17,965 nucleotides of DNA from NCBI GenBank assembly GCA_038845975.1, contig JAWBQF010000042.1, positions 1-17,965 of the forward strand, in the 5' to 3' direction. The notes below the pieces were generated by a model. It was given only the letters and a program-made list of their open reading frames with translations, was not told the origin of the DNA and did no database searches. The position numbers and the translations under genes were made by a program. Below are positions 1,587 through 17,719 of this stretch, piece after piece (the first letter of the stretch is position 1; each line of letters opens with the position of its first letter). Origin of the DNA: Candidatus Methanomethylicia archaeon (GTDB lineage Archaea > Thermoproteota > Methanomethylicia > CALHIW01).

Positions 1587-3023
1587 ATGTCAATTATGAG
1601 GATTAGGATTTTAAATCGTGGGGATATTTGTAGAATTGATGTAGCTACAATGGAGGTTCTGGAAAAGATTGGTATAAAGATATTTGAGGATGAGGCTTTA
1701 AGGATTATGAGAAGAATAGGTGTTGAAGTTGGAGATAATAAAACTGTTAGAATACCGGAGTATATTGTAAGAGAAGCTATTAAGAAAGCTCCAAGCTCCT
1801 TCATACTTTTCGGTAGGAAGCATAGATTAAAAATTGAGCCTGGTAATACTTATTTTTCAATGCAGGGTACTAGTATTCATATTCTAGATTTAGAAACAGG
1901 CTTACGTCGAGAACCTACTTTGAGAGACTTAGAGAATTTTTGTAGGCTTGCAGATGCCCTAGAAAATATTCATCACGTATCTATAGCTGTAGAGCCTAAA
2001 GATGTGAAGATAGAGTTACTGCATGTATATGAGTTGCTTACAATGTTTAGGAATACTACGAAGACTATTGATGGAAATACTTATGGAGGAAGAACTGCTA
2101 TGGATACTGTAAGGCTTACTAGTATTGTTGCTGGCGGTATAGAGGAGCTTATGAAGAAACCTATGCTTCTAGGATTTCATAATCCAGTAAGTCCTCTACA
2201 GCACTCTAAAGAGTTAACTGAGGGACTTATTGTCTATGCTAAGTATAGACAGCCAGTTATAATAGCTCCTGAAGCTCAAGCAGGAGCTACAGCACCAGCT
2301 ACCCTTGCAGGACTATTAGTACAGCAGAATGCTGAGGTTTTAAGTGGATTGGTTATAGCTGAGTTTACAAATCCAGGTACTCCAATACTTTATGGAACTG
2401 TTTCAGCCCCCCTAGATATGAGGACAGGTAACATAGCTCTTGGGGCTATAGAAACTGGATTAATAAATGCAGCAACAGCTGAAATAGCAAGCTACTATAA
2501 TCTACCAAGTCGAGGAACCGGAGGAGTAACAGACTCGAAAATACCCGATATACAGGCAGGAATAGAGAAAGCATTAACATTACTCATGGCTGCTATGGCT
2601 GGAATAAACTTCATATATGATGCTTCAGGATCTCTTGAATCTACATTAACAGCAAGCTATGAGCAGGCAGTAATCGACAATGAAATATGCGGTATGGTTA
2701 ATCGTGCCTTATGTGGAATTGAAGTTAATGATGAAACACTTGCTCTAGACGTTATAAGTGAAGTAGGTTCAGGAGGACATTACCTATCAAAAAAGCATAC
2801 TATAAAATACCTTAAGAGAGAATACTATATACCTAAAATAATTGATAGGGATAGAAGAGAGAAGTGGATAAGGATGGGAGGAAGAGATTTATGGAGGACT
2901 GCGCGTGAAGAAGCAATGAGAATACTAGCAGAACATAGACCGGAACCACTAGATAAAGATGTGGAGAATGAACTTGTAAAATTAGTTGGAGAGATGGAGA
3001 AGAAATTGACTAGGAACCATTAA
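1587..3023 (+). CDS. mttB: Trimethylamine methyltransferase (MttB) superfamily protein, non-pyrrolysine type
   Basis: 478 aa with family motifs NPVSPL, AGATAPATLAG, DMRTG, GAIETG, TDSKIPDIQAGIEK, EQAVIDNEI and GSGGHYL. No in-frame TAG; Val314 occupies the Pyl-equivalent position. The start could be 1596. Confidence 0.93.
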   Translation: MSIMRIRILNRGDICRIDVATMEVLEKIGIKIFEDEALRIMRRIGVEVGDNKTVRIPEYIVREAIKKAPSSFILFGRKHRLKIEPGNTYFSMQGTSIHILDLETGLRREPTLRDLENFCRLADALENIHHVSIAVEPKDVKIELLHVYELLTMFRNTTKTIDGNTYGGRTAMDTVRLTSIVAGGIEELMKKPMLLGFHNPVSPLQHSKELTEGLIVYAKYRQPVIIAPEAQAGATAPATLAGLLVQQNAEVLSGLVIAEFTNPGTPILYGTVSAPLDMRTGNIALGAIETGLINAATAEIASYYNLPSRGTGGVTDSKIPDIQAGIEKALTLLMAAMAGINFIYDASGSLESTLTASYEQAVIDNEICGMVNRALCGIEVNDETLALDVISEVGSGGHYLSKKHTIKYLKREYYIPKIIDRDRREKWIRMGGRDLWRTAREEAMRILAEHRPEPLDKDVENELVKLVGEMEKKLTRNH

Positions 3024-3199: not shown

Positions 3200-4507
3200 T
3201 TAAGATTTATTGCTTTGATGTAGTTTTCCTAGTGAGCTTAAACGTTTAATTTCTCCTCTTTCAATAAGTATTCTTACAGTTCTACTACTAATTAATTCCT
3301 CTAATTTATCTATTCTCTCCTTAATCTCCCTAAACTCTACTAGTGGTTGAACTGCTTTACCTATTTCTTGCGGTATTATCTTCCTGATAGGTACTGCTAG
3401 TTTTCTTATCGGGTACTCAATTATTTTAGGCTTATATTTACCTATAAGCTTCATATACATTTCACTATATGATTTGCCCCATGGCTTATTTTCCTCAATA
3501 TTAAATCCAAATCTATTAACTTTAAGAACTTCATATGGGCATGCATTAACACATGCTCCACAATATACACAGTATTCATCAGCAACTTTAATTCTTGATT
3601 CTGAAGGTATTCTCGCAGTATAGAATAGATTTAATGGGCATATGTTGAAGCAATTTTTACAGCCTGATGGATCGCATTTCTCAGGCTTAACAATTCTAAT
3701 CTCTCCTGTAAATGGCTTCTTAGTTTCTATTGCTTTTTGTGGACATTTATCCATGCATAAGCCACACCATATACAGCTATTAACATCTATTTTAACTTCC
3801 CCTTTAACTTTCGGTTTAGCTATTGTTCTTAAAGCTGACTTAAAGCATTTAACTGATATTGCTTCTGTAGGACATATTTCCCTACAGAGTTCACAGTAGT
3901 CACATTTATCTTCATCAATAAATATTCCATTAGCAATTTTAAATTCTGGTGGTGTAGGTTTATCTATCCATTCTATTTTGAATGCATTACATAGTATTTC
4001 ACATAATCCACAGTATATGCATTTATCTATGTCAATTCTTATTTCTCCACTAGCCCATATCTCCCCATCATATTTTACAAGATCCTCCTTTCGAGGAATC
4101 TCAATTTCTACCTTTAAAGCTCTTCTCGGACATGTTTTCTCACATATTAAGCATGGTTTACACTTTGACGAATCTATGCTTATTGATCCGCTAATTCTTG
4201 GGGTTTTAAATGTTTCTTCAGTATTAAACTTTAATGCATTAAATATACATACTGATGCGCCGACTGGACATACAATACATTTAGTTTCATCAATAATTAT
4301 CTGTGGAGCTTCAAGCTTCTTTGCTGCTATATCTCTTATTGGACCCAATGTTATTGCTTCAACTGGACATACAATACTACATAATCCACATCCAACACAT
4401 CTATCCATACTGAATTTTATGTTTTTTGTAAGCATTGTATATTTTGAAGTGTATGTTAACGTACTATTTACTATCTCGACATTTACTTGCGGCTTTTCAA
4501 TACTCAA
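3200..4507 (-). CDS. fwdF: Polyferredoxin, FwdF/FmdF-like (8 ferredoxin-type [4Fe-4S] motifs)
   Basis: Six CxxCxxCxxxC motifs, one CDPSGCxxCxxxCP variant and one degenerate CxxCxxGxxxC. The TTG start overlaps the hdrA TGA (TTGA), with an AGGTGA SD at 4515-4520. It has a C-terminal charged, probably helical extension. Confidence 0.82.
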   Translation of the reverse strand: MSIEKPQVNVEIVNSTLTYTSKYTMLTKNIKFSMDRCVGCGLCSIVCPVEAITLGPIRDIAAKKLEAPQIIIDETKCIVCPVGASVCIFNALKFNTEETFKTPRISGSISIDSSKCKPCLICEKTCPRRALKVEIEIPRKEDLVKYDGEIWASGEIRIDIDKCIYCGLCEILCNAFKIEWIDKPTPPEFKIANGIFIDEDKCDYCELCREICPTEAISVKCFKSALRTIAKPKVKGEVKIDVNSCIWCGLCMDKCPQKAIETKKPFTGEIRIVKPEKCDPSGCKNCFNICPLNLFYTARIPSESRIKVADEYCVYCGACVNACPYEVLKVNRFGFNIEENKPWGKSYSEMYMKLIGKYKPKIIEYPIRKLAVPIRKIIPQEIGKAVQPLVEFREIKERIDKLEELISSRTVRILIERGEIKRLSSLGKLHQSNKS

Positions 4508-6864
4508 TGAGTTGTCACCTTTACAAGTTCGCTTCCAATAGGTCCTACTTTACTAATTCTATCTACGAAGTCTGTAATGATTTTAGCTAGCTTACCCCCC
4601 TCAGAAGCACTTACACCCGTTATTTCAACTCTACCTGGATTAACTTCATATTTCTCCAATAATTCCTTTAATGACTTTATTCTCCTATTGGCTTTAACTC
4701 TACCTGTTCTATAGTGGCAGTCCTGTTCTCTACATCCAATAATTAGAACTCCATCAGCTCCCATTTTAAGAGCCCAAACTACATGTTTAGGACTAACTCT
4801 ACCTGAACATTCAACTCTAACTACTCTAATATTTGTTGGATATGGTATCTTGTTAATTCCCGCATTATCTGCAGCTGCATAGCCACACCATCTACATAGG
4901 AATCCTATAATTAATGGATAGTCCTTTTTCTCCTTAAATACTGCTTTAAGCATTAAGTATATTTGTTCATCAGTTGGTTTTTTAGGCGATTTTATTGCTC
5001 CTACTGGACATGCAGCTATACATACACCACACCCAGTACATGCAGTTTCATTAACTAATACTTCTTTAGATATTAGTTTTAAGGCTTTATAGTCGCATGC
5101 TTGTACACATAACCCACATTTTAAGCATTTATCCTTATCTACTTCAGGTGCAATAACCTCCACTTCTACTTCACCAGAATGTAGGAATTGAGCTGCTTTA
5201 CTTGCTGCTAATCCTGCTTGAAGAGTAGATTCAGTAATGTCTTTAGGTCCACTGCATGCCCCAGCTAGATATATACCGCTTCTAAAAGTATCTGATGGTT
5301 TGAGTTTGGGATGATACTCTGTAAAGAAGCCATATTCATCTAGCTGTAATCCAAGCATGTTTGCAAGCCTTCTATTATCTGGATCTGGATCCATACCTAT
5401 ACTTAAAACTACTAGGTCGAATAGTTCTCTCTCTACTTTTCCCTCTAGAGTATCCTCATAGGTAAGTTTTAGCTTTCCGGATTTATCTCTCTCTACACTA
5501 CTTATCCTTCCCCTCACAAATTTTACTCCTGCTTCAAGTGCTCTTCTATATGCTTCTTCATGCATTTTACCTGAAGCTCTAATATCAGTATAGAAGACTG
5601 TTATATCTATTTCTGGATTAATTATTTTTGTTTCAAGAGCATGCTTTATCGTATACATACAGCATATCTTACTACAGTATGGTCTACCTAGTCTTTCACT
5701 TCTACTACCTACACATAGTATGAATGCTATTTTCCTTACTTCACCACTATCTGATGGCTTAACTATTCTACCTTTTGTAGGTCCATTACAGTTAAGCATT
5801 CTATCATATTCGGCTCCTGTAATAACATCTAGGAATCTTCCATAGCCATACTCCTCGATTTCTCTTGGATTATATGGTTTAAATCCTGTTGCAACAATTA
5901 TTGCTCCTACACTTAAGGTTATTTCTCTATCTATATCTTTAAAGTTTACTGCCTTAGGATCGCATACTCCAATACAATTCATACATCCAATACAATTTTC
6001 AATATCAATATATGGTGCAACAGGTACTGTTTGAGGTTCTGGTTTAACTATGGCCTTTCTCATATTTACTCCATATTCATACTCATTCGGGAGCTCTACT
6101 GGGCAAACTTCTAAACACTTATTACATCCATTACATGCTGTTTCATCTATATATCTTGCTTTCCTTCTAATCTTCACCACATAGTCTCCAGGTACTCCTG
6201 AAACATCAACTACTTCACTTAAAGTATATATTTTAATGTTTGGATGATTGTAGGCTTGAGAGAGTAACGGCCCAAGAATACATATGCTACAGTCTAGCGT
6301 TGGAAATACTTTATCCCATTTAGCCATATGACCACCTAGAAAACCAGATTTTTCAACTAGGAATACCTTAATACCAGTATCTGCTAGATTTAATGCTGCA
6401 TTAATACCTGCTACACCACCACCTATAATAAGAACTGATCTTTCAGTAGGTCTTCTAATAATATTGATTGGTTTAGCTTCTCTAACAGCTTCTAAAGCCA
6501 TTAATATATGGTCTAAAGCTTTTAATGTAGCTTTACCTGGATTATACCAGTGAACCCAACTAGCCTGCTCCCTAATGTTTGCTATTTCAATAAATCCTCT
6601 ATTCAAACCATATTTTTCAGCGTTTTTCTTGAAGAGTTCTTCGTGAAGACTCGGAGTACATGCAGCTATAACAATTCTTGAAGTTCCATCCTTAGCTATT
6701 ATCTCCCCCATTTTCTTTAGTCCATCCTCACTACACCAATGCTCATTATCATATACTAGAATATCTCCATATATCCTCTTAACATCATTTTTAAGCTTTT
6801 CAATATCTATAACGCCTTTAATATTTGTACCGCAATGACAGATTAAACATGCAGTTCTATTCAT
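4504..6864 (-). CDS. hdrA: Heterodisulfide reductase subunit A fused to a C-terminal MvhD ([2Fe-2S]) domain
   Basis: CHCGTNI, AACTP, GGGVAG FAD motif, KVFPTLDCSICI, inserted 2x[4Fe-4S], CVGSR...CSKICC, GPKDI and C-terminal 2x[4Fe-4S]. MvhD motifs follow: FLCRWCGYAAAD, CSGRV, GCREQDCHY. AGGTGG SD at 6869-6874. Confidence 0.95.
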   Translation of the reverse strand: MNRTACLICHCGTNIKGVIDIEKLKNDVKRIYGDILVYDNEHWCSEDGLKKMGEIIAKDGTSRIVIAACTPSLHEELFKKNAEKYGLNRGFIEIANIREQASWVHWYNPGKATLKALDHILMALEAVREAKPINIIRRPTERSVLIIGGGVAGINAALNLADTGIKVFLVEKSGFLGGHMAKWDKVFPTLDCSICILGPLLSQAYNHPNIKIYTLSEVVDVSGVPGDYVVKIRRKARYIDETACNGCNKCLEVCPVELPNEYEYGVNMRKAIVKPEPQTVPVAPYIDIENCIGCMNCIGVCDPKAVNFKDIDREITLSVGAIIVATGFKPYNPREIEEYGYGRFLDVITGAEYDRMLNCNGPTKGRIVKPSDSGEVRKIAFILCVGSRSERLGRPYCSKICCMYTIKHALETKIINPEIDITVFYTDIRASGKMHEEAYRRALEAGVKFVRGRISSVERDKSGKLKLTYEDTLEGKVERELFDLVVLSIGMDPDPDNRRLANMLGLQLDEYGFFTEYHPKLKPSDTFRSGIYLAGACSGPKDITESTLQAGLAASKAAQFLHSGEVEVEVIAPEVDKDKCLKCGLCVQACDYKALKLISKEVLVNETACTGCGVCIAACPVGAIKSPKKPTDEQIYLMLKAVFKEKKDYPLIIGFLCRWCGYAAADNAGINKIPYPTNIRVVRVECSGRVSPKHVVWALKMGADGVLIIGCREQDCHYRTGRVKANRRIKSLKELLEKYEVNPGRVEITGVSASEGGKLAKIITDFVDRISKVGPIGSELVKVTTH

Positions 6865-6872
6865 TCAACCAC

Positions 6873-8156
6873 CTACAAGTATTCTAGTAGCTTCCTAAGA
6901 AATTCCTCCTCATGAATAGTGTTTTCTCTTTCATCTATGATTTTCTCTAGCTTAGTAGGTACACCGTCCGAGCGTATAACTTCCCCACTAGCTTCAACTC
7001 CTAGAATCGATAATGGAACCCTTATTTGGCTTCTACTTGAAGCTACTGTTTCTCTATAATCTAATATTATTGTTTTACTAAACGGTATTTTTCTTGAAGC
7101 ACTTAACGGTAGATGTGTTGTAGGATCTGTTTTAACAAGGAGAACTGCATCAAAATCCCCTCTTAAAAGTCCTCCGTAAGCACTTGTAGAAACAGGATTA
7201 TATTCAATACTTCCATTACTAAACTTTAATGCATGACTATACTTATAGAGTTTATATGGGATCTGCGCTGCCCCCATTGAGTTGATTCTTTCAGCTATTG
7301 GAGTTAATGTAATTCTTTTACTAGCTCCTATTTTTCTTAGAATGTTTACAATTGAAAGTATTGTATCGTTAACATTACCGTTAAGTATTAAGCCGTGACC
7401 TATGAAGAATGCAATATATCTTGCCCTTTTAATATCATTGATTAGAGATGAGGCTGCTCCTGTGTACCTACTAGTCTTTAACGGTTTTCCATCATATATT
7501 CTATCTAAACTCTCAGTAAATTCAACATCTCCACCTAAATCGATTTTTATTTGGTGTTGAGCGATCTTCATAGTCCAGCTATTCCTAACATCTACTACAG
7601 CAACAATTCTATTTTCTCTTCCAAGTGGAACACTATTTCCTCTAGGCATTACTGAATATCTGCTTGCATGTCTTAGATTAGTTTCAGCTGGGTTTGCAGC
7701 CCAGAAAACAATCATGTCTGCATTATCCAATACATCTTCAAAAACACCTAACTCAATATCTCCACTGGCTATTAAGGGCATTAATGGCTGACATATACTT
7801 GGAGGCGTATCAAATATTCCATTAACCTTCTCTGCAACTTTTAATCCAAGCTCTATAGCTTTATTGGAACATTCATCAAACCCATATATTAAAGGTTTAC
7901 TAGATGATGAAAGAATTTCAGCAGATTTCCTAACAGTTTCTTCAAGATCTACGTTTTTCAACCCAATAGTGAAACCTCTTAACCTACTATCCATGCTATA
8001 TGTTTTAATTGCTTGATAGCCATGACTACATGCCCCCTCAACAACCCTTACTTCTCCATTACTGATTTTAACAACTAAGTCATTACATAATAAGGAGCAT
8101 CCTGGACAAACAACTTCTTCTAAAACAGTGTTCTCTAAATAGCTTTTTAAGGACAT
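6873..8156 (-). CDS. fwdB: Formylmethanofuran dehydrogenase subunit B-like Mo/W-bisPGD family protein, divergent active site
   Basis: Colinear with FwdB: VVCPGCSLLCND...AC [4Fe-4S] motif, KPLIYG, ADMIVFW..NP....RH.SR, VVDVR, YNP, DP..HLP, GVEASG...R.DGVP. ATG 8156 is preferred over GTG 8162 because a GGTG SD lies upstream. Confidence 0.88.
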   Translation of the reverse strand: MSLKSYLENTVLEEVVCPGCSLLCNDLVVKISNGEVRVVEGACSHGYQAIKTYSMDSRLRGFTIGLKNVDLEETVRKSAEILSSSSKPLIYGFDECSNKAIELGLKVAEKVNGIFDTPPSICQPLMPLIASGDIELGVFEDVLDNADMIVFWAANPAETNLRHASRYSVMPRGNSVPLGRENRIVAVVDVRNSWTMKIAQHQIKIDLGGDVEFTESLDRIYDGKPLKTSRYTGAASSLINDIKRARYIAFFIGHGLILNGNVNDTILSIVNILRKIGASKRITLTPIAERINSMGAAQIPYKLYKYSHALKFSNGSIEYNPVSTSAYGGLLRGDFDAVLLVKTDPTTHLPLSASRKIPFSKTIILDYRETVASSRSQIRVPLSILGVEASGEVIRSDGVPTKLEKIIDERENTIHEEEFLRKLLEYL

Positions 8157-8342
8157 ATACACACCAATTATAAAACTTAACTAATATATTTTTCCAACAC
8201 TATCAATATAACGCTGTTTAGCTAATATTTAAACCTTATGATGTTAAATAGTAATTCAACTACATATATAAAGCATATACAGATATTAGGGGAAGTTAAT
8301 TTAGACGGATTCAATAATATATGTTAGCTAAGCGAACCACTA

Positions 8343-8917: not shown

Positions 8918-9070
8918 TTTGAGAAGCTAGCTGGAAGTAGTGAATATTAAGACTGCTTAACTGCATTATAAGTATAAAATAATGGTTCTGTCCGGATAAG
9001 ATATAGGTTGAGAATAGGTTTAATCTTTTCTTGTTTTTGTTTTTTCCTAAAGTATTGTTGCTATTCTTAT

Positions 9071-9179
9071 GAGCTCATTGCAAAACTCCAAATTTAAGCA
9101 TGTTAACAATCTTTTACAATACTATTCTCATGTAGAATTAAACTGTTAAACCTTAGTAGTAGAGTTTTGCAATGACTTC
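9071..9179. mobile_element. 109-bp MITE-like element nested in the IS6 3' region (IS5-type ends)
   Basis: Ends GAGCTCATTGCAAAACTC (9071-9088) and revcomp GAAGTCATTGCAAAACTC (9162-9179) match 16/18, inner 14 bp perfect. TAT flanks both sides (9068-9070, 9180-9182). No coding capacity. Confidence 0.7.
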
Positions 9180-9256
9180 TATCTTAAAAAGTTTAATATT
9201 TTAGTCATCTCTTGCTTTTTAAAATTTAATGTTAAATATGATGATATGATAATAAG

Positions 9257-9929
9257 TTATCTCTTGCTTTCCTTGCCTAGAAAGTCGTAGTAGAACTTAA
9301 GGCTCTTAGAAGCTGTTAGATTCCTTAAAGCTAGGCTTTGTTCACTCCCACTTAGCTTTCTAAGGGTATTTCTTAAGTTAACGTTGATGTTATGGAGGAA
9401 TATGCCTGTACGATGCTTCAGGTAGGCAAAAACCCTTTCCACCAAGCTTCTTCTCCATGTTTTGATGCTCCTGCTCTAATCCTAGCTGCTCAACCCCTTC
9501 CTCAAGCCAACCCGCCCTATCCCTTATTATTCTCGGCTTGTTAGGCATTTATTAAGACTTTTGAAGGAAAGCCTAGTTGCTAAAGAACTCCTAGCAGGTC
9601 CTTATCTCTACAAGCTCCTAGTATCAACATCTATGGCAACATAAACCCAAACTTCCCGCCCTTAAGCTTGAGGCAATCTTCATCTATAGCTATGGCTTCT
9701 TTGGCTTCCCCCATTCTTTAGCTTCCAAAATAGCCCTGAACTTCAAGCACCACTCGTTTAGATTTACTGGCAAATTCCCTCCAAAGCTCAAGAAGCCTAG
9801 AAGCTTTCCACAAGAGCTCAGTATCAACCATAATAGAAAAGCCTTCACCTTCAGCTCAATCGGCTTTCTATTTCCTTTAAAGATATTTAAGCTCCCAGCC
9901 CAATCTATTAACTGGGCTGGAATCTCCAT
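9257..9929 (-). pseudogene. Frameshifted IS6 DDE transposase
   Basis: MEIPAQL...FKGNRKPIELKVKA / AIAIDEDCLKLKGGK / VWVYVAIDVDTR / NKPRIIRDRAGWLEE...LGLE / RRSLVERVFAYLKHRT are spread over several frames. ORFs 9690..9950 and 9257..9445 are pieces of it. Confidence 0.88.
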
Positions 9930-10039
9930 AATATTAATTACCCAGCCCAACTTTTATCCGGACAGAACCAAAATAATTAGGGAAAAATAGTAAATTAGAG
10001 TAGAATTTATTATGGAGGCTTCTATAGAACTGGATGAGT

Positions 10040-10429
10040 TTAATCACTACTAAGAAGTTCTTGTAGTTTAGTAGTAGTTTTAGATGTTGGCTTAATAGAT
10101 ACCATTACACGTCCATATATTGGAAAGCCTTCCTGACCCATGAATGGTGGGAGTAAAGACATGCTCCATGGACTCATAGGCATAACAGCAACATCATCCT
10201 CAAGGCTTTCATCAGCTTTAACCCTAACAACAACGGAGTTGAAAAGCGATGATACCTCCACGTTATCGCCGTTTTTTATACCCATCTCAACCATGGAAGA
10301 TTTAGAAATGGAAACTATAGCTACACTATTAGCATACTCACTATTTAAACTACCCATCTTAGACATTAACTCCGAATTATGAGTTCTTGTAATAACAAGC
10401 TTAAACTGTCTAGACACATGAGAAGACAT
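10040..10429 (-). CDS. fwdD: FwdD-like molybdopterin-dinucleotide-binding subunit, divergent
   Basis: 129 aa; LVITRT, EY...VA, M..MGIKNGDNVEVSS, VVVR and MPMSPW match the FwdD double-psi barrel pattern. Confidence 0.8.
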   Translation of the reverse strand: MSSHVSRQFKLVITRTHNSELMSKMGSLNSEYANSVAIVSISKSSMVEMGIKNGDNVEVSSLFNSVVVRVKADESLEDDVAVMPMSPWSMSLLPPFMGQEGFPIYGRVMVSIKPTSKTTTKLQELLSSD

Positions 10430-10713: not shown

Positions 10714-11175
10714 ATGCTTGAAAACAAGAATAAGAAACTAATTCAATATTACGTATTAAAGTGTTTTCAGTGTGGAGTATGTACAGGTTCATGTCCAGTA
10801 TCATCTATTACACCGTTTAATCCAAGAAGGATAGCGTATAAAATAGTTAGAGGAATAGGAGGAATTGATGAGATATGGTATTGTCTTATATGTCATATAT
10901 GTGAAGCAAGATGTCCAAGCCTTATAGAATTCACTAAAGTAGTAACTAAGCTTAGAGAGGAAAGCATTAGGGCAAGAAGAGATATATTAAATACCTACAG
11001 GGAAATGCTAAAACAGTTTTTAGATAGTGGATTAGTAATTAAGCCTATAAGTAATGAAGTTGAAGTCTACCGTGAAAAGCTAAAACAAGACCTAGATAAG
11101 GAGGGATTTCATAGAGTATTAAGAGAAATATTTATGAAGACAGGATTTCAAGGGGTTGGAATTGACGAGGATTAA
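10714..11175 (+). CDS. hdrC: Heterodisulfide reductase subunit C (2x[4Fe-4S])
   Basis: CFQCGVCTGSCP...FNPRRI...IWYCLICHICEARCP; overlaps hdrB. Confidence 0.88.
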   Translation: MLENKNKKLIQYYVLKCFQCGVCTGSCPVSSITPFNPRRIAYKIVRGIGGIDEIWYCLICHICEARCPSLIEFTKVVTKLREESIRARRDILNTYREMLKQFLDSGLVIKPISNEVEVYREKLKQDLDKEGFHRVLREIFMKTGFQGVGIDED

Positions 11176-12049
11176 TGATGTCCCAAATAGTGAAGAACCA
11201 TTATACTACTATCCAGGATGTCTTTCACTAAATATGTATCCAGGTATTGCATACTCAACATTAAAAGTTCTTGAAATGCTAGGTTATAAGGTATTTTTAG
11301 GAGAGGAGATATGTTGTAGCTTAACATTTAAGAATGTAGGGTTAATGCCTCCTGAAACTGTATATTCTATCAATGCCTTTATAATGTCGAAGACATATTT
11401 AAAATCTAGATTTATTGTAACATCATGTAATGGATGCTACTCAAACTTAAACGATACATTAAAGAAACTAGAAGATGAAGGTTTTAGAAGGCTTATTGAC
11501 GAGTTGAATATGACAATACCCCAGGGTATTAAGATTATACATGTAGCTGAAGTAATATACAAGCAAATAGAAGAAATAGCTAGGATAGGGGAGAGAAATC
11601 TTAAAGGATTAAGAGTAGCAGTCCATTATGGATGTGATTATACGTATGCTCATCCAGATCTAGTTATTGATAGTGTTGAGTATCCAAGATTCCTCGATGA
11701 CTTTATTGAAAGATTCGGAGGTGAACCTATTGAATACGATGAGAAGCAAACATGCTGTGGCCAACCAGCAATTAAGGGGGTGGGAGATATAACTATGGAG
11801 CTAGCTAAGAGGAAAATACTAAGTATAAATAGCGTAGATACGGATATTCTACTTGTAATGTGTCCAGCATGCCTACTAGCATTTGATAGGGTGCAGTATA
11901 GCTTAATAAGCTTAGGGGAGATAAATAGAGTAATACCGGTAATACATGTATCACAGCTAGCAGGATTAATTCTAGGTTTAAACTTTAAAGATCTAGGTTT
12001 AGATCTCCATCTAGTTAAGGAGTTTAATAGGTTTCATGGTTTAAGATAG
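11156..12049 (+). CDS. hdrB: Heterodisulfide reductase subunit B-like protein (two CCG domains)
   Basis: YYPGC, ICC, SCNGC, HYGC, TCCG and MCPAC give ten Cys for two non-cubane clusters; C-terminal PVIHVSQL.GL.LG. The true start may be TTG 11162 (AGGGG at 11151-11155). Confidence 0.9.
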   Translation: MELTRINDVPNSEEPLYYYPGCLSLNMYPGIAYSTLKVLEMLGYKVFLGEEICCSLTFKNVGLMPPETVYSINAFIMSKTYLKSRFIVTSCNGCYSNLNDTLKKLEDEGFRRLIDELNMTIPQGIKIIHVAEVIYKQIEEIARIGERNLKGLRVAVHYGCDYTYAHPDLVIDSVEYPRFLDDFIERFGGEPIEYDEKQTCCGQPAIKGVGDITMELAKRKILSINSVDTDILLVMCPACLLAFDRVQYSLISLGEINRVIPVIHVSQLAGLILGLNFKDLGLDLHLVKEFNRFHGLR

Positions 12050-13189
12050 CTAACTAATTAAAGCTCTAATGAAGCTAGATATAACTAGATGAATTTTTAA
12101 TATTATGCTTCTAGGTATGGATTCATGATTATCAAAATCTAAATCTCTACCAATAGCTTCTAGCAAGTTGGATTGACTAATTATACTAAATGCTTTATCC
12201 ATTGTTTTCGGCGTATTAACCAGCAGATTTAAAAGCTTAACTAATACTCTTTGCCTTCTAAGCTTCATTACTAAATCTAAATTAAGCTTAGCATATCTTA
12301 CTCCAATATTATTTACATCGCTACATTCATTAAAAGCCTTAGTAAGAGCATCTACAGATTTTAAACCAGTTAGTAGACCTCCACCAGTTAATGGTTTTAC
12401 CTGAATAGCAGAATCACCAATATATAGTAGTCTACCAAGATAGGGGGTTTTTAAGACAGGACCTCTAAGTATCCATCCACCGAAAACTCTTAAAACTCTA
12501 TATTTACCGATTTGTTTTGAAATTATTGGATGCTTACTTAAAACATAAATAAGCCTAGTGTAAGGCTTCCTACTAGATCCTAATCCAACTCTTACAATTC
12601 CATCTCCTAGAGGAAGAAGCCATATGAAGAATTTAGGAGTTAATTTAGAGAAGAACACTTGTATAGTATCTAAATCAACATTACTTAGTCTACATTCTAA
12701 ATCCATCTGGATACCTGGAACCCTATCAACATATGGATTTAATGTTTTACCCAGTATCCTATGTGAAGCTCCTTCAGCATTAATTACTAAATCGTAGCTT
12801 TTAATTATACCATTAACTTCAATAGATGCCTTTCTGTAGTTTACAGCATTAACCCTTACACCTAAACAGCAATATTCATAACATCTATCATAGAGTTCAC
12901 AATCAAAACCAACTCTATCAATAACTCCTACAAACCATGAATTATCATGTAGAGTTACCGATATGTTACTGGGTGAATACAGTTTTATTCTATTAAACCT
13001 ATTTAGAATATGCTTACTACCTACATATCTCTCAATAAAGCTCCTACTAACTACACCAGCACAATGTTGAGGTATACCAATAGACTTATGTTCTTCATAT
13101 ACTGTAACACTATGACCTAAACTAGAAAGCTTTTTCGCAATACTTAAACCAATAGGTCCAGCACCTATAATTGCTATTTTCATCCACAT
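12050..13189 (-). CDS. Geranylgeranyl-reductase-family FAD-dependent oxidoreductase
   Basis: IIGAGPIG, PQHCAG, IDRVGFD, INAEG, FIWLLP, VRVGL and IGDSAIQVKPLTGGG. Probable start is ATG 13183. Confidence 0.85.
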   Translation of the reverse strand: MWMKIAIIGAGPIGLSIAKKLSSLGHSVTVYEEHKSIGIPQHCAGVVSRSFIERYVGSKHILNRFNRIKLYSPSNISVTLHDNSWFVGVIDRVGFDCELYDRCYEYCCLGVRVNAVNYRKASIEVNGIIKSYDLVINAEGASHRILGKTLNPYVDRVPGIQMDLECRLSNVDLDTIQVFFSKLTPKFFIWLLPLGDGIVRVGLGSSRKPYTRLIYVLSKHPIISKQIGKYRVLRVFGGWILRGPVLKTPYLGRLLYIGDSAIQVKPLTGGGLLTGLKSVDALTKAFNECSDVNNIGVRYAKLNLDLVMKLRRQRVLVKLLNLLVNTPKTMDKAFSIISQSNLLEAIGRDLDFDNHESIPRSIILKIHLVISSFIRALIS

Positions 13190-13293
13190 CCCATAGTGAA
13201 TTATTCATTAATTCTATTTAGATATATGTAAAGGAAGGAACCGAGGAATAATAGAAATACTTTTGGGATTGATATTTGTAGCCATATAAACCA

Positions 13294-14259
13294 TTAATAT
13301 AGATGACATGCAACAAAATGCTTTGAGCATACTTCCCTTAAAGTAGGCTCATTTAGATTACATTTACCATCAATTATCTTAGGACATCTAGGATGAAATC
13401 TACATCCTGTAGGTGGATTAATTGGGCTTGGAGGCTCTCCTGGAACAATAGGTCTCTCCCTAAACCTATTTTCAGGGTCAGGATCAGGTATAGCATTTAT
13501 TAGGGCAACTGTATATGGATGAAGAGGATTTTTTAAAACTTCTCTTATTGAGCCATACTCAACAATCTTTCCAAGGTACATAACACCAATATTATGTGAG
13601 AAGTATTTAGCTGTAGCTATGTCATGAGTTATATACATCATTCCAATACCATACTTTTCCTGAAGCTCTCTAAATAGTAACAGTATTTCAGCCCTACTGG
13701 AAGCATCAATCATTGATACAGGTTCATCGGCAACTATAAAGCTTGGATTTAAAACTAGAGCTCTTGCAATACATACTCTTTGCCTCTGTCCACCTGAAAG
13801 CATATGTGGAAACTTTAAAATAAACTCTTCAGGGGGAGAAAGCCTTACATTACTTAATGTTTTTAAAATAATTTCTCTACGTTCAGAAACATCTTTAACT
13901 CCATGTATTATTAGAGGTTCTTCAAGTATTTGCTTAATCGTCATGTATGGATTTAGAGATGAAAACGGATCCTGAAATATTATTTGAGCTTCCTTCCTAA
14001 TCCATCTAATATCTCCCTTAATATTCGTTATGTCACTACCTTTAAAAACTATTTTACCTGATGTAGGCTCTATAAGCTTAACAGCTGTACGTCCAAGTGT
14101 AGTTTTTCCACTACCAGACTCACCAACTATTGCTACTATTTCACCTTTAGATATAGTCATAGATACACCATCAACAGCTTTAACAGTTAACGTTTTAAAG
14201 AAGCCTTTACGAACACTAAAATATGTTTTAATATCTACTAGTTTAAGTATAGGCTCCAT
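13294..14259 (-). CDS. dppF: Oligopeptide/dipeptide ABC transporter ATP-binding protein
   Basis: GESGSGKT, LSGGQRQR, ADEP, HPYT and a C-terminal GCRFHPRC...C...C domain. Confidence 0.93.
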   Translation of the reverse strand: MEPILKLVDIKTYFSVRKGFFKTLTVKAVDGVSMTISKGEIVAIVGESGSGKTTLGRTAVKLIEPTSGKIVFKGSDITNIKGDIRWIRKEAQIIFQDPFSSLNPYMTIKQILEEPLIIHGVKDVSERREIILKTLSNVRLSPPEEFILKFPHMLSGGQRQRVCIARALVLNPSFIVADEPVSMIDASSRAEILLLFRELQEKYGIGMMYITHDIATAKYFSHNIGVMYLGKIVEYGSIREVLKNPLHPYTVALINAIPDPDPENRFRERPIVPGEPPSPINPPTGCRFHPRCPKIIDGKCNLNEPTLREVCSKHFVACHLY

Positions 14260-14265
14260 AAATCA

Positions 14266-15213
14266 TCACTTGTAAAGCCAACACTTAACAAAGCTACCGT
14301 TTACTAGTATACTTTGAGGATTTTCCCTATAGCATTTATCCATTACGTATGGACATCTAGGATGAAATCTACATCCAGATGGAGGAGCTACAAGATCTGG
14401 AGGAGCTCCAGGTATGAATTCAGGTGTTTTATCACTGTGTAGTCTAGGAATACTGCTAAGTAGTTTTTGAGTATATGGATGCTTAGGAGATAGAAGCACC
14501 TTCTCAGCACTACCAAGCTCTACAAGCTCTCCAGCATACATAACTCCAAAATCATCACATATATCGCTTGCTAAAGCTATATCGTGAGTTATGAAGATCA
14601 TTGAAATACCAAGTTTTCTCTTAAGGCTTTTAAGTAAATTCATTATTTGAGCTTGAATGCTTACATCAAGCGCTGATGTAGGCTCATCTAGAATTAATAT
14701 ATCTGGATTTAGTGTTAAAGCCATAGCTATAATAGCTCTCTGCTTCATACCTCCGCTAAGCTCATGGGGATACCTATTAACAATATCAGGAGGTAAACCT
14801 ACAAGCCTAAAAAGCTCCTCAACAATTTTTAAAGCTTCCTCTTTTCTTAAACCCTTATGGATAATAAGAGGTTCAGCAACTTGAAAACCAACTTTAAGAA
14901 CAGGATTTAGGGAATTCATAGCACCTTGAAAAACCATTGATATTCTCCTCCATCTAATCTTAGATCTAAACTCAGCCTCATTAAGAATCGTTAAATCCAT
15001 ATCTTCAAGATATATCTTACCCTCATATCTTGAAACATTTCTTGGAAGATTTCTAACTATAGCATTAGCTGTACTTGACTTACCACATCCAGATTCACCT
15101 ACAATTCCTAGAGTTTTACCCTTATCTAAGCTAAGAGATACACCATCAACAGCTTTAACATCCCCTCTTAAAGTTTTAAAGTAAAGTCTTAAACCACTTA
15201 CTTCAAGAAGCAT
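14266..15213 (-). CDS. dppD: Oligopeptide/dipeptide ABC transporter ATP-binding protein
   Basis: GESGCGKS, YPHELSGGMKQR, LDEPTSALD and GCRFHPRC. Confidence 0.93.
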   Translation of the reverse strand: MLLEVSGLRLYFKTLRGDVKAVDGVSLSLDKGKTLGIVGESGCGKSSTANAIVRNLPRNVSRYEGKIYLEDMDLTILNEAEFRSKIRWRRISMVFQGAMNSLNPVLKVGFQVAEPLIIHKGLRKEEALKIVEELFRLVGLPPDIVNRYPHELSGGMKQRAIIAMALTLNPDILILDEPTSALDVSIQAQIMNLLKSLKRKLGISMIFITHDIALASDICDDFGVMYAGELVELGSAEKVLLSPKHPYTQKLLSSIPRLHSDKTPEFIPGAPPDLVAPPSGCRFHPRCPYVMDKCYRENPQSILVNGSFVKCWLYK

Positions 15214-16653
15214 TTACTTCCACCTTCTCAGTCTAGGATTAACTACAGGTTCCATACCTAATGCTATAAATACGAAGGTAATTGCTGAATATACAATAAA
15301 CAAGCCGGGTGGAAGAATCCACCACCAATAACCTAGAAATACAGCACCATTTTTAAATCCATACTCTAATATTTGGCCCCATGTAGGCATAGTAACATCT
15401 CCAAGGCCTAGAAAGCTTAAAGCAGCTTCAGCTAGTATTGCGTAGGGAGTGAAGAAGATCATTTGAGCAAATACAAATGGTGCAACCTGCGGAAAAATAT
15501 GTTTAACCATTACTCTCAATCTAGATGCTCCAATAGCTACCGCAGCCTCAATAAACTGGGATGTCTTAGCTGAGAGAACCATAGATCTAACAATTATAGT
15601 TAGGCTTGGCCAGTTAAAGAATACAAGTACAAGTATGATTAGCCAAAGCTTACCACCAAATATAAATGATAACAATATGAGAAGAGGGAGAAGAGGAATA
15701 TTATTTATAGTATCTGCGAAACGCTGAATAAAATCATCAATTCGCCCACCAATATATCCACTTATAATTCCTAAACCAGCACCAATAACTGTTGTAAGTA
15801 GCGAGGTGCCAATACCAATGATTAACGCTACAGGAAAACCGAATAGTAAGCCTTGAGATAAATCACGTCCCAAAACATCAGTTCCCATTAAGCCATAAAC
15901 ATAACCACCTAAAACAACATTAACCATACCAATATTATCATTAACATCACTACATACCAATACAGTGCTAAAAACATATCTACCAGTTAATGGAGTAAAA
16001 GTATTTTTTCCACTAATATATCCGAAGATAATCCTTTCATTTCCAATCTCAAGAATACTACTAATTCCTAAGGATATGTTAAACTCCCTATACAGAAAAC
16101 CTATAAGAGACCTTGCTAAATACATATCTCCGCTTAAAAGTATCCTTTTAGGCTCTATTGAGAAGTATTTAAATGGGGGTATTACATTATTTGATGGTGT
16201 TTCAATAGCTAGAGTATATAGCTCTACAGTTTTTCCATCAGGTCTAGTTACATAAAACCTTACAATAGGCGGTGAATCCCTATTATGGAATAATAAATTA
16301 CTGATTCTTAACGTTATAAACTTTGGAAACTGATTATATTCATGGTTATAGCTTACATTATAGTATTTAATAAACCGGTTATTGTAGGTTTTAATTCCGG
16401 AAGCCTTACTTACTGAGAGCTCTGCATGGCTCATAAGCTTTTCAGAAAGGAAAATATTAATCCATTCAGGCTGAGCAGTTTTAGGATAATCAACCCAATA
16501 TAGAGGATTATACCAGTATCGAACCCCAAAATCTAAGGGTAGAGTAACTACAGTATAAATAGATACTATAACTAAAACCGTAAGAAATAGAATACCGATT
16601 TTCGATATATTACTAGCCCAGAACTCACTAAAAGACTCTCTAATAAAGCTCAT
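15214..16653 (-). CDS. dppC: Peptide ABC transporter permease with a large extracytoplasmic insert
   Basis: GTDVLGRD, FIEAAVAIGAS (EAA loop), HIFP, LSFLGLG and GYWWW..PPG, with a ~200-aa hydrophilic insert after TM1. Confidence 0.92.
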   Translation of the reverse strand: MSFIRESFSEFWASNISKIGILFLTVLVIVSIYTVVTLPLDFGVRYWYNPLYWVDYPKTAQPEWINIFLSEKLMSHAELSVSKASGIKTYNNRFIKYYNVSYNHEYNQFPKFITLRISNLLFHNRDSPPIVRFYVTRPDGKTVELYTLAIETPSNNVIPPFKYFSIEPKRILLSGDMYLARSLIGFLYREFNISLGISSILEIGNERIIFGYISGKNTFTPLTGRYVFSTVLVCSDVNDNIGMVNVVLGGYVYGLMGTDVLGRDLSQGLLFGFPVALIIGIGTSLLTTVIGAGLGIISGYIGGRIDDFIQRFADTINNIPLLPLLILLSFIFGGKLWLIILVLVFFNWPSLTIIVRSMVLSAKTSQFIEAAVAIGASRLRVMVKHIFPQVAPFVFAQMIFFTPYAILAEAALSFLGLGDVTMPTWGQILEYGFKNGAVFLGYWWWILPPGLFIVYSAITFVFIALGMEPVVNPRLRRWK

Positions 16654-17699
16654 TAAAGCCTCACCCTAGGATCAAGAACTACATAAAGGATTTCAAGTAT
16701 GAATCTAGCTAAAACATATATGAGTGTAAATATGTATGTTAAAGCAAGTATTAGAGATTCATCAACAGACATTACAGCCTTATAATATAGAGTCCCCATA
16801 CCAGGCCAGTCGAACACGATTTCAGTTAAAATAGCTCCTGCAATAGAGCCTGCAAGACCCAATACAATATTAGTTAGTATTGGTGGAGCAGCAACCCTAA
16901 CAATATATCTTCTCCTAACTAAATCTTCGGGAAGACCCTTAACCCTAGCAACATTTACAAAATCCTCCTGGGCAACTGATAAGACAATACTTCTCGTTAT
17001 GTAAATCCATGAGCCTGATAGGGCTAAAACAAGAGTAATTAGGGGAAGCATTACATGCCAGAGAAGATCTAGAAAACGCATGAATGGATCTTCATGTGGA
17101 GGAGCACTATACATGCCGCCGAAAGGGAAAATTCTTAATTGAAAGGAGAAAAACAATATCATTAACATACCAAGCCACCATGTAGGTAGAGCATAGGAGA
17201 TAGCTGAATATAGTGAAGTAGCTCTATCTATCCTTGTACCATGTTTTAAAGCAACTCTTGGACCAATAAGGAGGCCTAGGATAAAGTTAATGATTAAGGC
17301 TGAAGTCATTAAAAGTATTGTGTTTGGAATTCTTTCAATAATTATGTCTGAAATTTTATTACTACCAGTAAATGTTTGAACCTCTCTTGCAGACCCTAAA
17401 TCTAAAGTTACAATTCTTAAAATCATATTTGGAATTCTAGCATACCAAGGCTTATCTAAACCATAAGCCTTAACTAAATCCTGCCTTATCCTTTCTATAG
17501 CTTTATTAAGCTCTTCAGGATCCCTAATTTGGGTAGTAAGCTTCTGCCTTATACCTCTAAGCTCCTCATTCATTATTGAGTTAAGAATTCTATCTGATAG
17601 TCCTGATGCACCAATTATTAAAACAGTAAATAGTAGAACACTAATAAGTACAATTATTAATGTTAACCCCTTTAAAGCTAAAGTCTTCCCCAACCCCAT
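16653..17699 (-). CDS. dppB: Peptide ABC transporter permease
   Basis: YGLDKPW, DLG, RIPNT, DFVNVARVKGL, TEIVFDWPGMG and LDPRVR. ATG 17699 is preferred because AGGTG at 17706-17710 fits an SD. Confidence 0.92.
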   Translation of the reverse strand: MGLGKTLALKGLTLIIVLISVLLFTVLIIGASGLSDRILNSIMNEELRGIRQKLTTQIRDPEELNKAIERIRQDLVKAYGLDKPWYARIPNMILRIVTLDLGSAREVQTFTGSNKISDIIIERIPNTILLMTSALIINFILGLLIGPRVALKHGTRIDRATSLYSAISYALPTWWLGMLMILFFSFQLRIFPFGGMYSAPPHEDPFMRFLDLLWHVMLPLITLVLALSGSWIYITRSIVLSVAQEDFVNVARVKGLPEDLVRRRYIVRVAAPPILTNIVLGLAGSIAGAILTEIVFDWPGMGTLYYKAVMSVDESLILALTYIFTLIYVLARFILEILYVVLDPRVRL

Positions 17700-17719
17700 A
17701 AAAAACACCTATTATCATT

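Follow-up and report, generated by a model that had tools for sequence, protein, structure and literature searches.

A FwdB-like paralogue with a replaced metal-site arginine and histidine, encoded in an HdrA2-linked gene cluster of a Candidatus Methanomethylicia archaeon

A gene encoding a homologue of FwdB, the B subunit of formylmethanofuran dehydrogenase (FMD), was found in the genome of a hot-spring Candidatus Methanomethylicia archaeon (assembly GCA_038845975.1) on contig JAWBQF010000042.1, the entire 17,965 bp of which were analysed and are referred to here as the window. The encoded FwdB-like protein keeps the metal-ligating cysteine and the N-terminal four-cysteine [4Fe-4S] motif of FwdB, carries other residues at the positions of the catalytic arginine and histidine, and is encoded next to an HdrA2-type subunit of heterodisulfide reductase (Hdr) and a polyferredoxin, a context that places it in the family of 'Fwd-Hdr' clusters. 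To judge by these residues, CO2 and formate have probably ceased to be substrates of the protein. It is tentatively regarded as the remodelled terminal redox site of a bifurcating Hdr complex that acts on another substrate, a reading given slightly less than an even chance of being correct. The 'Fwd-Hdr' cluster itself is already known (PMC12700198); what is new relative to the searchable literature is the evidence against standard formate/CO2 catalysis in this B subunit, the existence of one large clade fixed for Ala-Glu at the altered site, and the occurrence of the module mostly in hosts that lack Mcr.

The FwdB-like gene is located at 6873..8162 on the minus strand and forms an open reading frame (ORF) of 429 amino acids counted from a GTG codon, from which the residue numbering used here runs; the database copy, of 427 amino acids, begins two codons further in, and the ATG at 8156 is likely to be the true start. 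The whole gene was identical in contigs from two further sequencing runs, neither of them marked as a possible origin of this DNA, and in two strain-variant runs the key codons were unchanged among the differences displayed, nine more differences being present. Five FwdB/FmdB chains matched the protein in a phmmer search of Protein Data Bank (PDB) sequences (E 1e-51 to 7e-35), and the M. wolfeii FwdB chain 5t5i_B (E 4.2e-48) was paired with it as 'ppsicq.plm' to 'tasvchgps' and 'ltpiaerinsmg' to 'lipmrghynvtg'. The metal cysteine is retained as Cys124 (codon 7791-7793), which lies within DTPPSICQPLM (residues 118-128) and is followed by Gln125 (codon 7788-7790), and Cys124-Gln125 (7788..7793, minus strand) are aligned with Cys118-His119 of FwdB. 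Ala290-Glu291-Arg292 (7287..7295, minus strand), within TPIAERINSMG (residues 287-297), are aligned with Arg288-Gly289-His290. His119 is thus replaced by Gln125, Arg288 by Ala290, Gly289 by Glu291 and His290 by Arg292, the catalytic arginine presumably being the one numbered 288 in FwdB. Residues 154-165, WAANPAETNLRH (7668..7703, minus strand), are aligned with WGCNPMHAHPRH. Identical pairing of residues was obtained against 9sfi_Q, 7bkb_H and the canonical FwdB of the same genome (TCHG and MRGHFN), and the C-H and R-G-H motifs, present in all 23 canonical sequences compared, are both missing from the FwdB-like protein. The four-cysteine motif C19/C22/C26/C45 (8028..8108, minus strand) was invariant in two alignments. 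A preliminary description of this DNA had quoted three motifs and reported a FwdB homologue in which the cysteine ligand and the [4Fe-4S] motif are kept and the His/Arg pair is missing; all three motifs are present in the translation of 6873-8162, with the Cys124 codon where it had been placed, and the description is borne out by Foldseek and by the alignments to 5t5i_B, 9sfi_Q and 7bkb_H, in which neither His nor Arg stands at its canonical position.

The profile TIGR03129 (the FwdB equivalog) matched the protein with 285.3 bits, under its cut-off of 327.8, and no Pfam family was matched even at E<=0.1, PF00384 included. An AlphaFold2 model built from a 26-sequence alignment had a mean predicted local distance difference test (pLDDT) score of 84 and a predicted template modelling score (pTM) of 0.87, and its best Foldseek matches were FwdB chains (5t5m_B, E 2e-34, TM score 0.89), followed at greater distance by NuoG, FhcB, FdhA and ElpA-type chains. 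The gene is under purifying selection, with a ratio of non-synonymous to synonymous substitution rates (dN/dS) of 0.20 against the relative locus L005, the value for the polyferredoxin gene being 0.245. The possibility of a pseudogene or decaying copy is rejected in view of the intact frame, the dN/dS of 0.20 and the clade-specific invariant residues. When the window was scanned for Rfam families (gathering threshold) and for tRNAs, neither was detected within or close to the gene.

A search over 1.84 billion representatives returned 939 FwdB homologues at E<=0.001, 81 of them with E<=1e-30. When the best 150 were aligned with the window protein, a P-x-A-E motif was found in 8 of the 151 sequences, and most of the others had lost the cysteine and kept the four-cysteine motif. 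The metal cysteine is gone from 97 of 135 FwdB-like representatives of at least 380 amino acids, nearly all of which keep the four-cysteine motif, and FwdB/FhcB-like proteins that have degenerated yet retain the cluster site intact are therefore frequent. The intact motif had been offered in the preliminary description as a mark that sets the protein apart from cofactor-less relatives; since most of the 97 Cys-less representatives keep it, it does not have that value, and the argument that an intact four-cysteine motif implies a cofactor-bearing enzyme is ruled out.

A quick maximum likelihood tree (LG+G4, 104 rows, with six partial sequences left out) had 18 canonical R-G-H sequences as its root, branch support being given only as the Shimodaira-Hasegawa-like approximate likelihood ratio test (SH-aLRT). 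The HdrA2-linked FwdB-like proteins form one clade of 33 rows (SH-aLRT 99), none of which has Arg at the Arg288 position. Nested in it is a clade of 24 rows (SH-aLRT 100), termed the P-x-A-E clade, which contains the window protein and in which all members have Ala290-Glu291. One sister group, from Bathyarchaeia and Kor3, has C-H-G and [S/A]-G-H-Y and has lost the Arg alone; in another, from Thorarchaeota, the metal cysteine itself is gone. Among 26 cluster representatives of the P-x-A-E clade, Glu291 is present in all 26, Ala290 and Cys124 in 25 each, and Ser122-Ile123 are invariant. The residue after Cys124 is Gln in 6, His in 5 and Arg in 15, and position 292 is occupied by Arg (3), Lys (2), Asn (13), Ser (4), Glu (3) or Asp (1). 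Twenty-eight residues are near-invariant and specific to the clade, including H47, K53, K112, R174, E183, Q202, H203, D243, E291 and S295. It had been suggested in the preliminary description that an arginine shifted by two residues serves as a functional replacement. This finds no support in the clade as a whole, in which Arg or Lys occurs at position 292 in 5 of 26, within the window's immediate clade only; the conserved novelty, on this alignment, is Ala290-Glu291 and not Arg292. The exact C-Q plus A-E-R/K pattern is restricted to the window protein and to four clusters, each of which shares at least 77% identity with it.

The HdrA2-type HdrA is encoded at 4504..6864 on the minus strand, beginning 8 nt past the stop codon of the FwdB-like gene. 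It has 786 amino acids with an inserted ferredoxin domain and a C-terminal MvhD fusion (PF02662 at residues 652-774), and was matched by NF040770 with 990 bits against a cut-off of 1100. Its stop is overlapped by 4 nt by the gene for a FwdF-like polyferredoxin of 435 amino acids (3200..4507, minus strand; NF042909 249 bits, under the 375 cut-off), which has eight Cys motifs and a C-terminal tail of about 100 amino acids free of Cys. With the 8-nt gap and this overlap, the three genes form a tight operon. A FwdD-like subunit of 129 amino acids, alignable with canonical FwdD domains, is encoded at 10040..10429 on the minus strand (PF01568 E 1e-11; NF042908 57 bits, under the 175 cut-off). An HdrC-like subunit (10714..11175, plus strand; TIGR03290 75 bits, under cut-off) and an HdrB-like subunit with two CCG domains (11156..12049, plus strand; PF02754 in two stretches, TIGR03288 159 bits, under cut-off) follow, the latter retaining both Cys-rich CCG motifs. 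FwdA and FwdC were absent from the window in Pfam and NCBIfam profile scans, and no FwdG-like gene was noticed there, although no scan was aimed at FwdG.

Relatives of the FwdB-like gene were collected by a scan that covered each species with one genome, used patterns taken from the window's own clade and gave 105 relatives, the best 80 of which were kept. HdrA2 and the polyferredoxin adjoin the FwdB-like gene in 23 of the 25 closest loci, and in the two exceptions the contig is short or ends at the gene. Of the same 25 loci, 20 contain the FwdD-like gene and 10 the HdrC-like and HdrB-like pair. These loci are from Methanomethylicia, Ca. Culexmicrobium, Nezhaarchaeales, Bathyarchaeia, Baldrarchaeota, a 'Kor3' Thermoproteota genome and Thorarchaeota, and HdrA2 also adjoins the paralogue in all ten further loci from genomes of the same class. 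Most relatives share the gene order B, A2, F, D (opposite strand), C, B. A nitroreductase gene and a repeat of about 990 bp split the B-A2-F block from D-C-B in the window. Complex prediction for the FwdB-like protein with the polyferredoxin scored 0.00 in both of two runs made without controls, and was used neither for nor against an interaction. The HdrA2-MvhD and polyferredoxin context, the D partner at 10040-10429 and the canonical FwdDB-FwdA locus elsewhere in the genome had all been missed in the preliminary description.

The host genome (2.77 Mb, 33.7% G+C, 93% complete, 4% contamination) contains a second, canonical FwdB (TIGR03129 551 bits) with T-C-H-G and M-R-G-H-F-N. It is encoded on contig C5 (76559-80692) in a locus consisting of Ftr, a FwdD-FwdB fusion of 576 amino acids and an adjoining FwdA; such a D-B fusion is common to most canonical copies in the class, with open frames of about 570-597 amino acids. 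McrA was not found in this 93% complete genome, and the window gene is thus a paralogue in a non-methanogen. The closest named relative, at 87% identity, is from a metagenome-assembled genome labelled Ca. Methanomethylicia. Of the 12 genomes of the class that carry the paralogue, 11 also have a canonical FwdB, the remaining one being 62% complete, and a canonical copy likewise accompanies it in all five other genomes tested (two Methanothrix, Bathyarchaeota, Nezhaarchaeales and Thorarchaeota). The paralogue was found in 12 of 31 class genomes and an McrA match in 11 of 31. A tie to methanogenesis was considered and rejected, as an McrA match was obtained in only three of the 12 genomes with the paralogue, and the paralogue is missing from eight genomes that have McrA; the Fwd-Hdr-type module occurs mostly in Mcr-less genomes. 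The organism also has the tetrahydromethanopterin (H4MPT) Wood-Ljungdahl branch and at least 16 non-pyrrolysine MttB paralogues. Two further molybdopterin-oxidoreductase genes, both Fdh-alpha-like and under the equivalog cut-offs, are located on contigs C3 (L003:226-2169, 647 amino acids) and C7 (L004:1-2763, at least 921 amino acids), and imply that the organism makes molybdenum/tungsten bis-pyranopterin guanine dinucleotide (Mo/W-bisPGD).

In the arrangement proposed here, the FwdB-like protein would be the B-type subunit in a second Fwd-derived module, of non-canonical type, and, with the FwdD-like protein, would form a BD-type unit that lacks FwdA and FwdC. The FwdF-like polyferredoxin would connect this unit to a flavin-based electron-bifurcating disulfide reductase of HdrA2(MvhD)-HdrB-HdrC type. 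By analogy with the Hdr-Fmd/Fwd supercomplexes, low-potential electrons may leave the bifurcating flavin adenine dinucleotide (FAD) of HdrA via its inserted ferredoxin domain and pass through the polyferredoxin and the [4Fe-4S] cluster of the FwdB-like protein to the site around Cys124, although the reverse direction is also allowed, and the BD-like end module could either receive or deliver low-potential electrons. The Cys124 site would act on some acceptor or donor other than CO2 or formate, and the CO2/formyl-methanofuran chemistry would be handled by the separate canonical Ftr-FwdDB-FwdA locus. A precedent for such wiring is the binding of FmdF/FwdF to HdrA's inserted ferredoxin domain, from which it feeds FwdB (PMC13518236), and all the supercomplex parts are encoded in the cluster save a donor module, FwdA/C and FwdG. 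The protein is read as a terminal redox site because the site appears rebuilt and not decayed, with Ala-Glu fixed, His119 replaced by Gln, His or Arg, and the cysteine kept. The loss of the Arg/His pair, together with an invariant Glu adjoining the old Arg position, makes turnover of the formate anion or CO2 at the end site unlikely.

The present evidence leaves the two options already named in the preliminary description, a different substrate or a non-catalytic scaffold. The latter is a close rival and quite possible, if a little less probable: the FwdB-like and FwdD-like pair, with no metallopterin or a vestigial one, would give the HdrA2-polyferredoxin complex both structural support and [4Fe-4S] wiring. 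Much of the choice depends on whether a pterin is still bound, for which the sequence evidence gives a chance little better than even. According to a review of FMDs, the pterin is held at the B/D interface, the Arg and His around the metal are conserved in FMDs and formate dehydrogenases (FDHs), and the pterin-less homologue of M. extorquens lacks the D subunit (PMC11656701). Retention of the D-type partner in the cluster is thus in favour of a pterin and speaks against a mere relay, since pterin loss in M. extorquens goes with D absence (PMC11656701). The same applies to Cys124 and Ser122-Ile123, kept in 25 or 26 of the 26 representatives at an overall clade identity of 35-40%, and to the former catalytic positions, which are fixed to Ala-Glu and show no drift; the 28 clade-specific residues and the dN/dS are likewise consistent with a retained pterin. 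The full-length fold (TM 0.89) also differs from that of ElpA, a truncated, pterin-less FdhA in the Elp-Hdr complex, which is otherwise a direct precedent for a relay (PMC12350162), as are the structural matches to NuoG, a subunit of complex I, and to FhcB.

Several observations weigh against a catalytic site, some of them also in favour of the relay. Seventy-three alignment columns are invariant in 35 canonical FwdBs, and when a column was counted as kept at >=80%, the P-x-A-E clade kept 27 of them, close to the 23 kept by the 97 Cys-less representatives; the Thorarchaeota group keeps 36 and the Arg-less 'CHG' sister group 57. Only three columns, R60, C124 and P383, are kept in the P-x-A-E clade and lost in the Cys-less set. 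The PF00384 gathering score is reached by one of 13 clade members, compared with nine of 10 canonical, four of 19 Cys-less and four of four Arg-less C-H...G-H sequences, and the W-G-x-N-P motif is degenerate in several clade members (LFVNL, FFVDL, WGVSA). In the Thorarchaeota sister group, genes for the FwdD-like protein, the polyferredoxin and HdrA2 persist despite loss of the metal cysteine, and the module is therefore evidently able to work without that ligand. Degenerate FwdB-like proteins, as the 97 of 135 representatives indicate, are in any case common, and the sequence points to no candidate substrate. The counts of Arg-less forms are biased, since the loci were retrieved with patterns of the window's clade, and this too is to be set against a remodelled catalytic site. 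Within that pattern-biased retrieval, all FwdB-like proteins outside the canonical group lacked Arg at the Arg288 position, with motifs such as FCQG/MVGHY, YSQG/TLGDY and ICQG/LGGHY, in loci from Methanothrix, Methanocrinis, Methanosarcina and Methanoperedens and from Jord-, Hel-, Hermod-, Hod- and other Asgard archaea.

It is improbable that the protein is still a formate dehydrogenase or CO2 reductase, in which formate oxidation by FwdBD would feed bifurcation and reduce ferredoxin and heterodisulfide. This function was proposed for the Methanonezhaarchaeum 'Fwd-Hdr' cluster (PMC12700198); FwdBD has the ancestry of a CO2/formate catalyst, the cysteine ligand is kept, and in the Nezhaarchaeales subclade the motif is SICR (15 of 26), where the Arg could conceivably supply positive charge. 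Against it, the conserved metal-site Arg and His are absent, an acidic residue is invariant beside the former Arg, and the window's subclade has Gln after the cysteine, two relatives combining Gln125 with Glu292 and having no basic residue at either position. The main text of the cited paper is silent on active-site residues, with no occurrence in a term search of 'active site', arginine, histidine, cysteine, tungsten or molybd- (PMC12700198), and the formate hypothesis therefore appears, from that main text, to rest on annotation. The altered residues of this FwdB family were discussed in no paper found by full-text search of the open-access literature. Conversion of the pterin pocket to another cofactor or metal, bound for example by Cys124, Glu291 and the clade-specific His47 and His203 and supporting non-Mo/W chemistry, is very unlikely: the 28 clade-specific near-invariant residues and the weak Molybdopterin-profile match would fit it, the retained D-like subunit would not, and we know of no precedent for such a conversion in the Fwd/Fdh fold.

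Methanogen energetics depends centrally on the flavin-based electron bifurcation carried out by Hdr, and to our knowledge few coupling partners of this process have been identified outside methanogens. The cluster described here is conserved and widespread in archaea, and would couple an HdrA2-type enzyme to a FwdBD derivative without the canonical formate/CO2 residues. If the site is catalytic, a new low-potential reaction would be expected in Mcr-less hot-spring and sediment archaea; if it is not, a further molybdoenzyme fold, after ElpA, would have been recycled as wiring. In its strongest and somewhat doubtful form, the remodelled-site reading would make the P-x-A-E clade a new catalytic type in the Fwd/Fdh fold, with a Cys-ligated W/Mo or substitute-metal site, an invariant Glu in place of the formate-binding Arg/Gly, low-potential electrons derived from HdrA2 and a substrate other than CO2. 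Were this so, it would represent an undescribed energy coupling in non-methanogenic Thermoproteota, with variant forms in Asgard archaea, and the published formate-oxidation reading of 'Fwd-Hdr' would be overturned. Whether the site is catalytic or a relay, the published view of the cluster as a formate oxidiser needs testing, for which a cultured carrier, strain YNP3N, exists.

The repeat that interrupts the cluster (8983..9970, no strand assigned) was identified by an inverted-repeat scan. It is non-coding, about 990 bp long, and bounded by 28-nt terminal inverted repeats that are 82% complementary, with at least 10 further copies of 77-93% identity on other contigs of the genome; a sub-element of about 110 bp at approximately 9067-9182 occurs many more times. 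The repeat resembles a non-autonomous transposable element within which a miniature inverted-repeat transposable element (MITE) is nested, and is no part of the FwdB-like/Hdr system. The AT-rich contig start (1-1586, G+C fraction about 0.29) contains no ORF of at least 80 amino acids, tRNA or Rfam match, and is followed at 1587-3023 on the plus strand by an MttB-superfamily methyltransferase gene, one of the at least 16 in the genome, with an uninterrupted frame and no pyrrolysine codon. A match of Rfam PYLIS_3 inside it (2527-2625, 65.6 bits) presumably stems from conservation of the coding sequence. The minus strand of 12050-17708 encodes a geranylgeranyl-reductase-family flavoprotein and then a four-gene Opp/Dpp-type ATP-binding cassette (ABC) transporter with two ATPases and two permeases, one permease being unusually long (479 amino acids).

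Among known systems the closest is the 'Fwd-Hdr' cluster described in 2025 by Kohtz and co-workers (Sci Adv) in the cultured Ca. Methanonezhaarchaeia strain YNP3N, for which formate oxidation coupled to reduction of heterodisulfide and ferredoxin was proposed (PMC12700198). Both have a second FwdB/FwdD with HdrABC and a FwdF polyferredoxin, and a separate Wood-Ljungdahl locus with a fused FwdBD (PMC12700198), and the Nezhaarchaeales homologues share their P-x-A-E clade with the window protein. The window organism differs in having no McrA, a cluster split by a repeat, and Gln instead of Arg after the cysteine; FwdG is named in YNP3N (PMC12700198) and was not noticed in the window, where no scan was aimed at it. 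In the Culexarchaeia paper HdrA2B2C2 is mentioned, with no occurrence of Fwd or polyferredoxin in the text available (PMC9723716). Compared with FwdB/FwdD of M. wolfeii (5T5I/5T5M), the window pair is alike in fold (TM 0.89), length, four-cysteine motif, cysteine ligand and a separate D subunit, but has His119, Arg288, Gly289 and His290 replaced, falls under the TIGR03129 cut-off, and is encoded in a cluster without FwdA or FwdC. The Hdr-Fmd/Fwd supercomplexes (M. hungatei, 7BKB; M. maripaludis Hdr-Vhu-Fwd, PMC13518236) share an HdrA with an inserted ferredoxin domain, a FwdF-type polyferredoxin and a FwdB-type end module; the window HdrA is instead of HdrA2 type with a fused MvhD, the cluster encodes neither FwdA/C nor a donor of hydrogenase or FdhAB type, the end-module site is remodelled, and the organism is no methanogen. 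An HdrA-MvhD fusion followed by a polyferredoxin is also found for M. acetivorans HdrA2 (MA2868), which acts with HdrB2C2 (PMC2838876, PMC9012536), while the window HdrA2, at 990 bits, is under the NF040770 cut-off; among the loci fetched, a FwdB-like gene lies near HdrA2 and polyferredoxin genes in one Methanosarcina locus only (L044). ElpA, FhcB and NuoG are likewise members of the Fdh/Fwd fold that operate in redox complexes without Mo/W catalysis, but ElpA is truncated and the cofactor-less FhcB type has lost both the cysteine and the D subunit (PMC11656701), whereas the window protein is full length and retains Cys124 together with a FwdD-like partner gene.

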